Of a stretch of DNA of 64,000 nucleotides, positions 9,269-36,055 are shown piece by piece; the stretch's first letter is position 1, and every line of letters starts with the position of its first letter. The notes under the pieces are model-generated. The model ran no database searches and was not told the origin of the DNA. It saw only the letters and a program-made list of their open reading frames with translations. This DNA comes from an uncultured Bacteroidota bacterium. GTDB lineage: Bacteria > Bacteroidota > Bacteroidia > Bacteroidales > GCA-2748055. The translations under genes were made by a program, and so were the position numbers. The stretch lies in assembly GCA_963793455.1 (NCBI GenBank), contig CAWCAK010000008.1, positions 100,752-164,751 of the forward strand. Direction: 5' to 3'.

Positions 9269-9326
9269 CTGTAAAACCATTCTGTTTTCGTAACTTTCAT
9301 TATTCTAAGGAAATATCACCGGTTTC

Positions 9327-9872
9327 TTGAAGAACGATGAAGTCCATATGGTCAGGGAGCTCCGGGCCGGCCGGGAGAGTGCCTTCTCCTGGCTCTTCAA
9401 GGAATACTACAGGCCCCTGACTGTATACGCCTTCAAGTATATTTCAGACATGGAATCTGCCAGGGAAATTGTGCAGGACCTGTTCGTGTACCTCTATGAG
9501 AACAGGAAGACAATCCTGATTACAGGCTCCCTGAAATCATACCTGTACCATTCGGTCCGGAACCGCAGTTTGAACCTGGTCAGAAAGGAGCAGACCCGCC
9601 GGAAACACATGGCGCAGTTGCAGGGTGAACGGCATTCTTCTGATGATCCCGAGTCCATGATCCGGGAAACCGAAATGGAGCACCAGGTTTTTCTGATCAT
9701 CTCAGCACTCCCGCCGCAATGCAGGAGGGTCTTTCTGTTAAGCAGGGAAAAAGGATTGTCCAATGGTGAGATCGCCGGGCAACTGGAGATCTCCAAGCGA
9801 ACTGTGGAGAAGCAGATCTCCAATGCTTTGAAGGCAATCCGGTCAGGAATAAGCGACCTGGCAAAACCATAG
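9327..9872 (+). CDS. ECF-type RNA polymerase sigma-70 factor (FecI-like)
   Basis: Region 2 FSWLFKEYYRPLTVYAFKYI...AREIVQDLF. Region 4 LPPQCRRVFLLSREKGLSNGEIAGQLEISKRTVEKQISNALKAI. Belongs with the FecR/TonB-receptor genes further downstream. The last 228 nt lie inside repeat 9645-9907. Confidence 0.9.
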   Translation: MKNDEVHMVRELRAGRESAFSWLFKEYYRPLTVYAFKYISDMESAREIVQDLFVYLYENRKTILITGSLKSYLYHSVRNRSLNLVRKEQTRRKHMAQLQGERHSSDDPESMIRETEMEHQVFLIISALPPQCRRVFLLSREKGLSNGEIAGQLEISKRTVEKQISNALKAIRSGISDLAKP

Positions 9873-9907
9873 CGTCCACAACTTTTTCCAATCCTTCTGT
9901 ACGTGTT
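9645..9907 (+). repeat. Direct repeat copy 1 (sigma gene 3' end plus about 35 nt downstream)
   Basis: Aligns at constant offset 1440 with 11085-11347. I count 20 mismatches in 263 nt (about 92%). Confidence 0.9.
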
Positions 9908-11084
9908 CCTGTTTTCGTCATTCCCTCCGGTGTGAATTCTTCAAGCAAAGATAATCAGCGATGTAGTACTTGGATTTTAACATTTTTGGGTCTCTCGACA
10001 TCTCGCTTTCATGTAATTCCGGACAAAAAGGGACATGAAAGCGGATATTCGCTCGCGTGAAATCTTGTTTTAGATAAATATTATTTTTATATACGCATTA
10101 TTAAACAAATAAATAATTATTAATTATCCTTTGATAGATAATTACTAATATGCAATTGGCTTAATATACCGTATCGAGTATTAATCAATATCTATCTTGA
10201 GATGAAGTGGGAGATCATTAAGAAGTTTTCCGCCAGGAACAAGATTTGTTTTAGCTACAAGGACGTGTTAGCGGAATATCCCGATAAGGATCCCAGCTAT
10301 CTTTCCAAAGCACTTGCCACCATGGTAAGAAAGGGCATGTTAATGAAATTATGCCGGGATGTTTACCACGTTATTCCGCTGAGTGCAGATCCGCGGACCT
10401 ATACTCCTGACAGTAGACTTGTTGCCATGTGCGTGATGAAAGGGAGGGACTATTACATTGCTTACTCCTCGGCGATGGATATCCACGGATTGACAGATCA
10501 ACCAGGCCTGAAAACAATGGTAGTAACTTCCCGGCAGGTGCAACCGTCCATTCACACTATCGCCGGCAAGGAATTTCATTTTATAAGCCATGCCTACTAC
10601 AGGTTTTTCGGGTATGAAGCGACCTGGGTAACCACCCGGGAGCAAGTCATGGTCAGTGACCTGGAAAAGACCATTGTAGATGCCGTGTCAAAACCGCGTT
10701 TATCTGGAGGGATCCCGGGGGTCGGGAAAGCCATATTCCGCTCCAAAGAAAGAACTGATCAACAAAAATTGTTCTACTATTTATCCAGGAACGGGAGTCA
10801 TGTCGCGAAGAAGCGCTATTTGTTCCTCTCCGATTCTCTTGGAATGGGATGGACACCTGACCATGAAAGAATGCTTAAAGAAAGCGGGTCAAGCATTTCC
10901 CTGTTAGATCCCGCGGGTCCAATTCAGGGTGTGAAAAACTCCCGTTTTGGCCTGAAGATCAATTTTGAGGTAGACACCTTGATGGATCGCTAATAATTTT
11001 TATTGGTTGCATAAGGAGTGTTCAGGCTTGAGCGGTCGAGTTGATCACGTGTAGTTCAACAGGGTGTCCCAATGACGAAAACAG
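9908..11084 (+). mobile_element. 1177-bp insertion bounded by 14-bp perfect inverted repeats, carrying an AbiEi-like gene
   Basis: Left terminus CCTGTTTTCGTCAT (9908-9921); right terminus ATGACGAAAACAGG (11072-11085). The right end GGGTGTCCCAATGACGAAAACAGG matches the left end of insertion 32598-33080 in reverse complement. AT-rich interior (10060-10200). Hairpin CGCTTTCATGT...ACATGAAAGCG at 10004-10043. No transposase or integrase. Confidence 0.6.
10202..10993 (+). CDS. AbiEi-family (type IV toxin-antitoxin) antitoxin / COG5340-like transcriptional regulator
   Basis: N-terminal wHTH-like region (FSYKDVLAEY...LSKALATMVRKGMLMKLCRDVYHVIP). The motifs YYIAYSSAMDIHGLTDQP, VVTS, SDLEKTIVDAV and the tail RFGLKINFEVD follow the order I recall for Bacteroides AbiEi proteins. 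No AbiEii gene follows. Confidence 0.7.
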   Translation: MKWEIIKKFSARNKICFSYKDVLAEYPDKDPSYLSKALATMVRKGMLMKLCRDVYHVIPLSADPRTYTPDSRLVAMCVMKGRDYYIAYSSAMDIHGLTDQPGLKTMVVTSRQVQPSIHTIAGKEFHFISHAYYRFFGYEATWVTTREQVMVSDLEKTIVDAVSKPRLSGGIPGVGKAIFRSKERTDQQKLFYYLSRNGSHVAKKRYLFLSDSLGMGWTPDHERMLKESGSSISLLDPAGPIQGVKNSRFGLKINFEVDTLMDR

Positions 11085-11312
11085 GATCCTGAGTCCAGGA
11101 TCCGGGAAACCGAAATGGAACACCAGGTTTTCCTGATCATCTCTGCACTCCCGCCGCAATGCAGGAAGGTCTTTCTGTTGAGCAGGGAAAAAGGATTGTC
11201 CAATGGTGAGATCGCCGGGCAACTGGAGATCTCCAAACGAACCGTGGAAAAGCAGATATCCAATGCTTTAAAGGCAATCCGGTCAGGGATAAGCGAACTG
11301 GCAAAACCATAG
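11085..11312 (+). pseudogene. 3'-terminal fragment of an ECF sigma gene (region 4 only)
   Basis: Encodes DPESRIRETEMEHQVFLIISALPPQCRKVFLLSREKGLSNGEIAGQLEISKRTVEKQISNALKAIRSGISELAKP with no 5' part. Differs from the intact gene in 3 of 75 residues. Confidence 0.9.
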
Positions 11313-11347
11313 CATCTACAACTTTTTCCCGTCCCCCTGTACGTGTT
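11085..11347 (+). repeat. Direct repeat copy 2 (displaced sigma 3' end)
   Basis: See 9645-9907. Contiguous with the fecR-like gene downstream. Confidence 0.9.
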
Positions 11348-32431: not shown

Positions 32432-32597
32432 GCGACCTGTTTCAGGAATGAATCTGCAGTATGGACTTTACAAACTTTATGACTGTTTGATCCCCGCAGG
32501 GAGCTTTTCACCCTTCCACTCCTTGCTGAAGTCCTTCCAATAGGTGCCTATGGTTCTCTTGATGTCCTTCCGGAGGACCAGGAGTCCGAACAGGTTT
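32432..32597 (-). repeat. Direct repeat copy A (displaced 3' end of the symporter gene plus 45 nt downstream)
   Basis: 166 nt, identical to 33081-33246 except one synonymous position (GGAGGACC versus GGAGTACC). Confidence 0.95.
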
Positions 32598-33080
32598 CCT
32601 GTTTTCGTCATCGGGACACCCTGGTTGGCCTGTTTTTCTTTGCTTACCGCTTAGGATTCCGCCTATCATCCCCTGTTCCAGGCATTTCAGGTCCTGTCCG
32701 GTCTCATCAGGGCTGCCACGCCTGACACATGCTATTGTGCACGCGATGTGGATCTATACGAGGGCTTGAAGGCGAGAGTGACCGGGAGAGCGGAAGGGCA
32801 ATCGGATGGGAGAAGATCCTGAAGATATATGTAATATCCGTTTATTATACCTTAAAGGTAACTTAGTACTTATTACTTATACCTGCAGGTACATGTAATA
32901 TCCAAAATGGCACTTTTAAAGTGCACTAACTGGATATTACTTGTACTTCATACCTGTGGCAATCTTCACAAAGAATCATTCGTTAAAACAGCGGGACACC
33001 GGATCATCCCAGGATCAGGTATCTACATTGAAGATTGTCAGTGGTTTAAGAAATCACAGTGACAAAAGTGATGAAAACAG
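32598..33080 (-). mobile_element. 483-bp ORF-less insertion related to 9908-11084
   Basis: Starts CCTGTTTTCGTCATCGGGACACCCTGG and ends ...GTGATGAAAACAG(G). Both ends resemble the ends of the first insertion. The central AT-rich part has ATGTAATATCC boxes and a nested palindrome. Confidence 0.6.
32889..32946. other. Nested palindrome / potential cruciform or protein-binding site
   Basis: GTACATGTAATATCC (32889-32903) pairs with GGATATTACTTGTAC (32932-46; 15 bp, 1 mismatch). It encloses the perfect palindrome GCACTTTTAAAGTGC (32910-32924). Confidence 0.6.
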
Positions 33081-33246
33081 GCGACCTGTTTCAGGAATGA
33101 ATCTGCAGTATGGACTTTACAAACTTTATGACTGTTTGATCCCCGCAGGGAGCTTTTCACCCTTCCACTCCTTGCTGAAGTCCTTCCAATAGGTGCCTAT
33201 GGTTCTCTTGATGTCCTTCCGGAGTACCAGGAGTCCGAACAGGTTT
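33081..33246 (-). repeat. Direct repeat copy B (3' end of the intact symporter gene)
   Basis: See 32432-32597. Confidence 0.95.
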
Positions 33247-34871
33247 GGAATGGTCATGATGGCGATGGTGATGTAGGAGAGGTTCCAGACTATGGTGGTA
33301 TCGGTAAAGGAGGCAATGAAGAATCCCACCACGTAGATCAGCCTGTAAACAACCACATATTTGGTACCGAACAGGTAGGTCACCGCCCGGCCGCCGTAAT
33401 AGGACCAGGAGATGGCCGTCGAAAAGGCAAACAGCAGCAACCCGATGGAGACAATGTACTGTCCCCAGTCACCCATGATACTGCGCTTAAAGGCTTCTGT
33501 GGTAAGGGCTGCGCTGTGGATCAGTGATTTACCGGTGAAATAGACCTCCCCCTCCCCCGAGTTAAGTTCGGAAAACTGCACCACTCCCCCGCTCACCGGT
33601 ATGGGACCGGTATACTTTTCACCACCCCGGGTCACCACAACGTGTTCTGCGAAAGATTCTGCATGGATGATGGTGATCCCTTCAGTGCTTACCCTGCCGT
33701 CGCTGACCTGCAGGGTACCGTTAAAAACCGCCAGGGATGTATCGTTGATGAAGGACCGGCTCATCAGGGCCCTGTCCTCATTATCTGATTCTGAATACGT
33801 TCCGTCCAATACCACCAGGTCAGCCTGTTCAAACCGGTTTTCGATCTTCTCGTTCCAAACCCCCGAAGAGAGAAGCACCAGTCCGGTGAGTGTACAGATG
33901 ATGATGGTATCGATGAACGGTTCCAGGATGGCTACCATTCCCTCCGATACCGGTTCCTGTGCTTTGGCAGCACTATGCGCAATAGGTGCAGAACCCTGCC
34001 CCGCTTCATTGGAGAAGAGGCCCCGGTTCACCCCTTTGTTAAAGGTAAATGCAAACCCGGCACCCAGGAATCCTCCCACCGCTGCACTTCCTGTAAAGGC
34101 ATCGGTAAAAATGGAACCCAGAGAAGGAAGGATGTTCTGGTAGTTGGTGGCAATCACAATGATGGCTCCCAGGAAATAGATCAGTGCCATCATCGGGACC
34201 AGGGTGGAAGTCACCTTGGCGATCCGCTTGATCCCCCCTATGATCACCAGTCCGAGCAGTATGGCCAGGATTCCCCCTGTAAGGGCATGGTTGATCCCGA
34301 AAGAGCTGAACATGGAGTCGGAGATGCTGTTGATCTGGGGAAGGCTGCCGGTCCCGAAAGAGGAGAGGATGGTGGCAAAGGCAAAGAAAGCACCCAGCAC
34401 TGCACCGGTCTTGATGATCTTCCCCGAACGGGTGGTGATATTCATCCGTTTCTTCATATAGTACATGGGGCCGCCGGAAATAGATCCATCGGGCAGGATA
34501 TCCCTGTACTTGTGTGAAATGGTAACCTCCACAAACTTGGTGCACATTCCGAACAAGGCTGTGACCAGCATCCAGAACAGGGCAGCCGGTCCACCCAGGT
34601 GAATGGCCAGAGCCACCCCGGCAATATTCCCTGTGCCTACCGTTCCGCTGAGGGCGGTGGTCAGCGCCTGGAAGTGCGAGGTATCTCCTACATCTCCAGC
34701 CCGGTCATATTTACCCTTGACAATGCGGATGGCATGCCCGAAATACCTGAACTGGGGCAATCCCAGGTAGAGGGTGAAAAAAATACCGGTTCCAAGCAGG
34801 AAAAAAACAAACCACTGGTGGCCACCCAGGTAATTATTCAGAAACAGCAGGAATTCATTGATCTTTTGCAT
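33126..34871 (-). CDS. Sodium:alanine (amino acid:cation) symporter, AGCS family
   Basis: Start [10 protein letters not shown] (ATG 34871). Motifs [27 protein letters not shown] and [18 protein letters not shown], with many TM helices. The 30 codons upstream in the track ORF run into the IS end and are probably not translated. Confidence 0.85.
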
Positions 34872-36055
34872 GCTCCCAAAAATAACAATATTTTCGGGCA
34901 GTACTTCCTCGCGGGTTCCTGCAGGTTCCTGCTGCCGACCGCTTATGCGGTTCGCTTGCACAGGCCATCCCCGTCTGCCCGACGGTTAAAATATTCTTTG
35001 CTGCATTTACATCTGCATTTTCCTCATGCCCACATACCTGGCATCTGAAAACAGCCTGTGATACTCTGTTTTCTTTTGCCGTGTACCCACAACATGAACA
35101 TCGCTGTGAGGTATGCCGGGAATCGACCTCAACCAGCATCCCTCCCTTCCAAAAGAGCTTGTATTCAAGCTGCCTCCTGAATTCAAACCACCCTGATCCA
35201 GTATGGACTTGTTCAATCCGGACTTTGCCTTGACATTCCTGCCCGGTTCTTCGATGTTCCCCTTGCCGATGCACTCATACTCCTTGATCTGCAATCCCTC
35301 CACATATACCTTTGCTTGGTTTTTGCTTATTTCGGTACTCAGCTTGTGAAGAAAGTCTGAACGTACATTGGCAATCGTATGATGAAGCCTTGATATTTTT
35401 CTCTTTTGTTTCTTCCAGTTGTTTGATCCTTTCTTCTTTCTTGATAGTTTCCTCTGCTCCCTGGCCAGCTGCTTCTTCATGTTTCCTGAAACTGTTCACT
35501 CCCTCAACCAGGGTGCCATCTGAAAAGGCAGCAAAACATTTTATCCCTGCATCAATTCCTATCTCCGAATCAGAAGCATGCTTCCCAATTTCAATCGTCT
35601 GCTCCACCTGGATGGAAGCAAACCACTGCCCGCCCCGGCTTGTGATGGTGATGTTCTTGATTGTTCCGCTTATATCACAGCTCTTGTGAAAACCTATCCA
35701 GCCAATCTTTGGCAAGAAAGATCCTGCGGTTATCAATCTTAAAGCCCTGGGGAAAACGAATGCCATCACTCATGCCTTTCTTCTTGAACACCGGCATTCG
35801 CTTCAATGGCTGGCTCTTATCAAAACAATCCTTGAAAGCCCTTTCCAGGTCCTTGAGCTTTTGCTGCAATACCTGTGAAGGGCACTCCTTCAAAAAACCA
35901 TACTCTTCGGATTGTTTCCAAAGGGTAAGCCAGAAGGCCAGTTCATTATACCAGAGGATCGCTTGCCTCTTCTCCAACCGATCCAGGTTCATCGCCAGGG
36001 ATTTGTTCCAGAGAAACCGTGCAGAACCACAATACCGGGCCAGCTTGTATCTCAA
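34855..36055 (-). pseudogene. tnpB: TnpB (OrfB, RNA-guided nuclease family), at least 3 frameshifts
   Basis: Four overlapping ORF pieces read in order. They contain MRYKLARYCGSARFLWNKSL, RuvC-I IGIDAGIKCFAAFSDG, KKQLAREQRKLSRKKKGSNNWKKQK, RuvC-II KVYVEGLQI, the zinc finger CSCCGY...CQVCGH, and RuvC-III NADVNAAKNIL. Confidence 0.85.

Follow-up and report, generated by a model that had tools for sequence, protein, structure and literature searches.

Two putative non-autonomous IS1634-family elements flanked by long direct repeats in an uncultured Bacteroidota bacterium

Results

Two inserts between copies of gene 3′ ends

The window analysed here, a 64,000-nucleotide stretch from an uncultured Bacteroidota bacterium (contig CAWCAK010000008.1), contains two inserts, E1 and E2, each placed between two copies of the 3′ end of a host gene. 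At locus 1 the host is an intact ECF sigma-70 gene (9327..9872, forward strand; Pfam Sigma70_r2, Sigma70_r4_2 and Sigma70_ECF), the last 227 nt of which lie inside the first copy of a 262-nt direct repeat (9646..9907, forward strand). This copy comprises the sigma 3′ end together with 35 nt of downstream sequence and abuts end A of E1 (1178 bp; 9908..11085, forward strand). The second copy, on the other side of E1 (11086..11347, forward strand), holds the displaced sigma 3′ end, including an intact 65-codon region-4 frame at 11115-11312. At locus 2 the host is an intact Na:alanine symporter gene on the reverse strand (33126..34871; Pfam Na_Ala_symp, E = 6e-122). One copy of a 165-nt repeat (33082..33246, reverse strand) forms the functional symporter 3′ end, consisting of the last ~120 nt of the gene plus 45 nt downstream, while the displaced 3′ copy (32433..32597, reverse strand) abuts end B of E2 (484 bp; 32598..33081, reverse strand).

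Aligned without reference to the inserts, the repeats span 9645-9907 and 11085-11347 at locus 1 (263 nt, 92% identity) and 32432-32597 and 33081-33246 at locus 2 (166 nt, 99% identity). When the exact element borders are applied, they become 262 nt with 242 identical positions and 165 nt with 164 identical positions, respectively. For both E1 and E2 the direct repeats abut the element tips on both sides, and both loci have the same order: gene, end A, cargo, end B, displaced 3′ copy. Empty-site alleles were sought by exact-protein look-up of the cargo, the symporter (with two start codons) and the FecR protein, and no record was returned. A contig from a near-identical strain (L091; Logan ERR11523668) begins inside repeat copy 2 of locus 1, 30 nt before the first copy-specific variant.

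Termini and interior of the inserts

E1 and E2 have in common the inverted termini CCTGTTTTCGTCAY and a 24-nt end, GGGTGTCCCRATGACGAAAACAGG. The sequence CCTGTTTTCGTCATYGGGACACCCTG has two exact matches in the window, at 11060-11085 (reverse strand) and 32598-32623 (forward strand), and was matched in 0 of 100 shuffles. When the end B 28-mers of the two inserts are compared, 26 of 28 positions agree. The conserved 24-nt end B of E1, GGGTGTCCCAATGACGAAAACAGG (11062-11085), shows no difference from the consensus derived from loci of other genomes; end B of E2 occupies 32598-32621. The opposite ends (end A) both begin CCTGTTTTC(G/A)TCA(T/C), starting at 9908 on the forward strand and at 33081 on the reverse strand, and the end A regions share the blocks TGTGAWTTCTTMAA and ATGTAG. 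The left tip of E1 is CCTGTTTTCGTCAT (9908-9921, forward strand), and the corresponding tip of E2 at 33081, read as the reverse complement, is CCTGTTTTCATCAC (33068-33081). Compared as inverted tips (CCTGTTTTCGTCAT / ATGACGAAAACAGG), the two ends match at 14 of 14 positions in E1 and at 12 of 14 in E2. A subterminal box, GGTGTCCC, is found in E2 as its reverse complement at 32993-33000, at position 82 from the left tip, and the left box of E1 has decayed to GGTCTCTC (9989-9996). A first-pass annotation of this DNA had reported the end B match, the shared end A blocks, the repeats and the common order of parts at the two loci, all of which were confirmed.

The ORF list contains no frame of at least 80 aa lying wholly inside E2. 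The 64-kb window holds a single copy of E2, and no close copy of its interior was found among the fetched loci; its first ~100 nt align with relatives of the E1 cassette. A tblastn search of the window for a transposase gene gave no match better than E = 4. We also considered the ATG of end B (ATGACGAAAACAGG) as a start codon for the displaced gene ends. It is in frame with the displaced end at locus 2, but at locus 1 a stop follows after five codons, and the idea was rejected.

The same ends flank IS1634-type transposase genes

To place the termini, the pattern GTCCCNATGAYGAAAACAGG was searched in one genome per bacterial species. The scan returned 90 stretches, all but five of which carry the extended motif GGGTGTCCC(A/G)ATGACGAAAACAGG, giving 85 loci. 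Almost all of these are in Bacteroidota and many lie at contig ends; about twenty occur in a single genome, that of Bacteroidia bacterium MS495-74. Immediately outside AACAGG the loci diverge in sequence. This distribution, together with the divergence beyond AACAGG, marks the end as part of a multi-copy mobile element.

Pairing end B with its inverted tip yielded complete elements of ~1651 bp, 1709-1718 bp and 1328-1348 bp, as well as miniatures of 93-104 bp. The 1651-bp copy at one locus (L011) encodes a DDE transposase of 511 aa. This protein scores 354 bits with NCBIfam NF033559 (IS1634 family transposase), for which the cut-off is 100, and is also recognised by Pfam DDE_Tnp_1. An IS1634-type transposase adjoins end B in 16 loci, and the closest plasmid-borne homologues of the transposase carry the NCBI annotation 'IS1634 family transposase'. 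On the RefSeq plasmid pPP7 of Persicobacter psychrovividus, an IS1634 family transposase called by PGAP is bounded by the homologous termini CCTGTCTTCGCCA ... GGGTGTCCCGATGGCGAAAACAGG and a 33-bp duplication. The tip CCTGTTTT agrees with the published IS1634 family consensus C-----YT (PMC2266710). The GGTGTCCC box lies 15 nt from the right tip in 18/18 complete elements. Near the left tip, 17 of the 18 have it again, at position 81-83 and in the same orientation; E1 is the exception.

These observations make it very probable that both inserts derive from an IS1634-family insertion sequence with a wide distribution in Bacteroidota and are non-autonomous. They are classed as derivatives of the family, and not as autonomous members, because they contain no transposase whereas full-length relatives with the same termini encode one. 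The enzyme belonging to these ends is not an integrative-element recombinase but an ordinary IS1634-family DDE transposase. The first-pass annotation had offered three explanations, the first of which was that the inserts are non-autonomous derivatives of an integrative element, mobilised in trans by a recombinase encoded elsewhere. In substance this was right, since relatives with the same termini do encode a transposase and full-length copies of 1.65 kb are present among the 85 loci; the part that fails is the nature of the enzyme.

E1 carries a solitary AbiEi-type gene

The passenger gene of E1 (10202..10993, forward strand) encodes a 263-aa AbiEi-type protein that matches the PADLOC AbiEi model PDLC02267 over its full length at 206 bits. 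Against NCBIfam TAA_AbiEi the E1 cargo scores 27.7 bits, which is below the cut-off of that model. The AbiE toxin-antitoxin and abortive-infection system pairs AbiEi with AbiEii; E1 resembles it in encoding a full-length AbiEi homologue and differs in that the gene is a solitary passenger between IS ends. No AbiEii nucleotidyltransferase gene was found in E1 or adjoining it, and E1 contains no second ORF.

Relatives of the cassette occur elsewhere. The most similar complete element (L078) is 1185 bp long, has 74% DNA identity to E1 and encodes a cargo protein that is 72% identical, while a 2384-bp version (L049) has an extra PLD-like ORF and a cargo that is 54% identical. Relatives of the E1 cargo are encoded on a further 21 metagenome contigs (L092-L112), most of which show one or both of the same ends. 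The closest cargo relative (L092, 85% nucleotide identity) has lost its left tip and lies at a different locus. An AbiEi gene between the two ends is the architecture not only of L078 and L049 but also of L093, L100 and L101.

MITEs, mobile insertion cassettes and transporter ISs consist of IS ends around non-coding DNA or passenger genes, and are moved in trans. Judged by its sequence, E1 is a putative mobile cassette in which a solitary AbiEi gene stands in place of the transposase gene between IS1634-type ends, like a mobile insertion cassette or transporter IS in having IS ends round one passenger gene and no transposase. E2 is by the same measure a candidate MITE-like derivative, being short (484 bp) and non-coding, with IS ends and a target duplication, and having 93-104 bp relatives elsewhere. 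Classical MITEs differ from both inserts in that their duplications are far shorter.

Long and variable target duplications

The first-pass annotation could name no IS family that makes duplications of such length. Complete copies elsewhere are flanked by duplications of 18, 22, 31, 33, 33, 42, 48, 54, 89, 97, 104, 113 and 119 bp, of which the 113-bp repeat belongs to L078, the 97- and one of the 33-bp repeats to L100 and L103, respectively, and the other 33-bp repeat to the Persicobacter copy. With the window included, duplications in the clade range from 18 to 262 bp and vary from copy to copy. No ~10.5-bp helical periodicity was apparent on inspection of the 15 duplication lengths. One further locus (L111) was rejected as a simple duplication, as its 64-nt repeat lies 213 nt from end B.

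Long duplications of this kind already have precedents. A passage in a 2008 survey of IS4-related families gives direct repeats of 8-514 bp for IS1634 and IS1549 (PMC2266710), and the survey adds that a mechanistic model for these long and variable duplications had not yet been proposed. Members of the IS1634 family usually give AT-rich duplications of 5-6 bp (PMC2266710). Because most described members make duplications of this short kind, long duplications are a trait of only some clades of the family. The published IS1634 and IS1549 repeats, on the strength of that passage, and the 18-119 bp found here in other genomes run counter to the earlier view, and its main reason for proposing a new system falls with the precedents.

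An alternative origin for the repeats is that two nearby insertions in sister chromosomes, each with a 5-6-bp duplication, were followed by unequal crossing-over within the element. The product would be the same in sequence as a long target duplication; the repeats start A-rich and end T-rich, like two AT-rich target sites, and AT-rich tracts of 5-6 bp are the typical duplications of the family. However, two insertions in the same orientation within 18-262 bp of each other would be needed in every one of >15 independent cases, and the long repeats of IS1549, to go by the titles of the original reports, arise 'upon insertion'. We therefore regard this route as very improbable.

The repeats also invite comparison with genomic islands that enter the 3′ ends of genes or tRNA genes by means of tyrosine integrases, in which the repeats likewise include a gene 3′ end and leave the gene intact. 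Under such a scheme E1 and E2 would be integrative elements of a site-specific tyrosine or serine recombinase, with an attachment site that carries a replacement 3′ gene end. In each case the direct repeats do include the 3′ end of a gene, of which one complete version is retained, and the imperfect repeat at locus 1 looks as if the element had brought its own copy. Against this, one set of ends is found at two unrelated targets in the window and at many more elsewhere, the repeats vary in length from 18 to 262 bp and lie outside inverted termini, a DDE transposase is the only enzyme associated with these ends, and an integrase is absent in or beside every complete copy examined. E1 and E2 differ from the tyrosine-integrase islands on each of these counts, and an integrative element is hardly credible here.

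Target choice, polarity and junction sequences

Among 74 distinct flanks, the first position after end B is an A in 65, and the next three positions are rich in A and G. Before end A, position -1 is a T in 12 of 18 flanks and position -2 is a pyrimidine in 17 of 18. Read together, the two sides mirror each other: end A is preceded by a run of T/pyrimidine and end B is followed by a run of A/purine, and this is the only general target preference.

The inserts had previously been described as a directional system, based on the order shared by the two window loci. That order recurs at L019, but L049 and L078 are reversed with respect to the window (gene, end B, cargo, end A, displaced copy), and L011 is placed between two genes. 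A fixed polarity is not a general feature, and the agreement between the two window loci is a coin toss.

The first-pass annotation had further pointed out that at three of the four window junctions AACAGG is followed, after 2-3 nt, by CCTG, a statement that was confirmed. From window k-mer frequencies, the probability of finding CCTG at three or more of four junctions is ~4e-5, a post hoc figure for a pattern chosen after looking, and both CCTG and CAGG are nearly threefold over-represented in the window. Elsewhere, CCTG at an offset of 2-3 was found in 1/74 flanks and in 0/6 cassette relatives. Site selectivity and palindromic junctions, as earlier claimed, thus find no support as traits of the family. 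The CCTG at the window junctions is unlikely to be due to chance, and neither family-wide behaviour nor the IS1634 assignment accounts for it; tip-like sequences may be preferred locally.

Two structural details of the window junctions may be recorded separately. At locus 2, each border of the duplication is found 3 nt outside ACCTGTT, the two being arranged mirror-symmetrically, and at locus 1 the displaced copy starts with a perfect hairpin, GGATCCTG-agtc-CAGGATCC.

Divergence between the two sigma copies

The two copies of the sigma repeat differ at 20 positions, 14 of them coding. Third codon positions account for 12 of these 14, and in terms of the protein 11 are synonymous and three conservative; the 35-nt non-coding tail contains the remaining 6 differences. 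For a neutral relic, a Poisson estimate over the time implied by silent sites predicts ~11-14 changes at first and second positions, and 2 are seen (P ~1e-3 to 1e-4). Comparison with distant homologues suggests that one amino-acid change probably arose in copy 1 and two in copy 2. Such nearly synonymous divergence does not fit neutral decay in place, and implies either recombination of functional alleles or selection on the frame of the relic. A diversity-generating retroelement was also considered and rejected, as the substitutions are mixed, mainly at third codon positions and not adenine-specific, and no reverse transcriptase is present in or beside the inserts.

If alleles were recombined, transposition with a long duplication would have taken place in another strain, from which E1 then reached the sigma locus by homologous recombination, either as a Campbell-style circle of E1 plus one repeat or as a short linear fragment. 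Differences that are almost all synonymous, with too few first- and second-position changes for a neutral relic, are consistent with this route. A single crossover between diverged alleles would also preserve every polymorphic site as a difference between the two copies, which is the pattern seen here up to both borders, and a 56-nt tract identical between the copies (9741-9796) offers a crossover site. However, the diverged allele was not found: homologue searches returned no sigma or FecR alleles between 54-61% and 99-100% identity, and outside the source and one near-identical strain the nearest sigma and FecR homologues are 61% and 54% identical, respectively. The degenerate left box of E1 also fits an insertion that is simply old, and selection on the relic frame would yield the same pattern of differences. 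Arrival of E1 by recombination has, in our estimate, somewhat less than an even chance. It would refine, not replace, the assignment of E1 to the IS1634 family. Campbell-type entry had been the second explanation offered by the first-pass annotation; it fails as a primary mechanism, and the synonymous-only divergence keeps it alive as a secondary route for locus 1 only.

Alternatively, the insertion at the sigma locus would be old, and the displaced 65-codon region-4 frame, which lies just upstream of the FecR anti-sigma gene, would be expressed as a small protein under purifying selection. The frame is intact and has its own ATG, only two of the 12 differences within it change the amino acid, both conservatively (R/K and D/E), the other 10 being synonymous, and the decayed left box of E1 is consistent with age. 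A promoter scan, however, gave nothing specific, and recombination between alleles predicts the same pattern. We consider a selected relic possible but rather unlikely.

Discussion

The results place E1 and E2 among ordinary mobile elements and not in a new integration system, an outcome that will not surprise a specialist. They are apparently undescribed Bacteroidota representatives of something already known, namely non-autonomous IS1634-family elements with long, variable duplications. Their likeness to IS1634 of Mycoplasma mycoides and IS1549 of Mycobacterium smegmatis lies in the family DDE transposase of their full-length relatives, the terminal inverted repeats and the long, variable direct repeats. 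They differ in that the clade described here is found in Bacteroidota and has highly conserved termini with an asymmetric GGTGTCCC box, and in that the two window copies are without a transposase.

The 64-kb window has no transposase gene, and the transposase that mobilised E1 and E2 in trans was presumably encoded at another place in the genome. As for IS1634 and IS1549, joining of the ends to the two strands of the target would take place at points tens to hundreds of bases from each other, in each case next to an A/purine-rich run when read outward from the end concerned. Repair synthesis would then duplicate the intervening 165 or 262 bp. The impression that the element prefers gene 3′ ends is best put down to survivorship, in that an insertion near the 3′ end of a gene would be tolerated where one complete gene remains. 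A duplication that spans the stop codon leaves a whole gene, which is why the element appears to 'replace' gene ends. The third explanation of the first-pass annotation, a new mechanism based on hairpin junctions, gained no support.

A wider proposal follows from locus 1. The long duplications of this clade could serve as homology arms, by which an element and one repeat copy move between diverged strains through homologous recombination without a transposase, or, alternatively, the displaced region-4 fragment could be a selected 65-residue protein beside the anti-sigma gene; we hold either possibility only tentatively. The homology-arm reading, if true, would account for the near-restriction of differences between the sigma 3′ copies to synonymous sites.

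For the genome studied here, a false lead, that of a directional integration system lacking a recombinase, has been replaced by a non-autonomous element of the IS1634 family. The synonymous-only divergence may point to recombination as a means of spread, or to a small protein newly derived from the sigma factor. For the family, the many natural insertions, with duplications of 18-262 bp, conserved ends, a fixed GGTGTCCC box and mirror-symmetric joints, constitute a small resource on the mechanism of duplication. Taken together, these features make the question of how long duplications arise testable with a defined transposase and a mini-element.

Distribution of the conserved end

The genome of Bacteroidia bacterium MS495-74 (BNTS01) alone carries approximately 20 copies of the conserved 24-nt end of the IS1634-family elements (among others, loci L002, L008, L009, L018, L020, L022, L030, L034, L035, L040 and L044). 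These copies are mostly located at contig ends and fall into two or more families whose interiors differ. At L030 ordinary host genes begin within ~300 bp of the conserved end, and this copy is therefore short and non-coding.

The full end motif is also present in three assemblies labelled Tissierellales, Paceibacterota and Paratractidigestivibacter (L001, L046 and L048). Because the interior of the L001 copy matches copies in Gaoshiqia sediminis, a member of the Bacteroidota, these labels likely reflect binning contamination.

Relatives of the E1 cassette

The element at L049 is a larger relative (2384 bp) of E1, the cassette with a solitary AbiEi gene, and encodes a second passenger (L049:3148-4026). 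Its product is a 292-aa PLD-like protein, with a weak match to the NgoFVII N-terminal domain and weak matches to MkoB and DpdK. A tandem-repeat stretch adjoins end B of this element. L111 (L111:1-1123) retains a cassette remnant of 484 bp. Here the 64-nt repeat of the left flank lies 213 nt past end B rather than abutting it, an arrangement suggestive of a second event, for instance a deletion or a nested insertion.

Sequence features at the E1 and E2 loci

Within the displaced sigma fragment beyond E1, a 65-codon region-4 frame with its own ATG is intact (11115-11312), and a FecR anti-sigma gene lies directly downstream. Compared with the functional sigma copy, this frame differs by 10 synonymous and 2 conservative changes. 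The junction between end B of E1 and the host forms a perfect hairpin with an 8-bp stem (11084-11103; GGATCCTG-agtc-CAGGATCC), and both of its differences from copy 1 of the flanking repeat (at 9650 and 9658) improve the palindrome. A tip-like sequence, TCTGTTTTCGTAAC (9281-9294), precedes the start of the sigma gene by 33 nt; it has two mismatches to the element tip, a level of similarity expected by chance about 1.7 times in the window.

The non-coding insert E2 contains an imperfect palindrome (32826-32945) with 66-nt arms that are 71% complementary. Adjoining the symporter gene at this locus is a degraded TnpB (IS605 OrfB) gene (35007-36055, minus strand), broken across three overlapping frames; it is unrelated to the E1 and E2 inserts.

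A subterminal box at both ends

Eighteen elements were compared (E1, E2, L011, L019, L026, L033, L049, L062, L072, L078, L084, L086, L093, L100, L101, L110, L111 and L113). All 18 carry a GGTGTCCC box 15 nt from the right tip (the end B side), and 17 carry one at position 81-83 from the left tip, with the boxes at the two ends in identical orientation. The left box occupies 9989-9996 in E1, where it is decayed, and 32993-33000 in E2. In full-length copies GGTGTCCC is found immediately upstream of the transposase start. The box probably serves as a binding site for the transposase or as a regulatory site.
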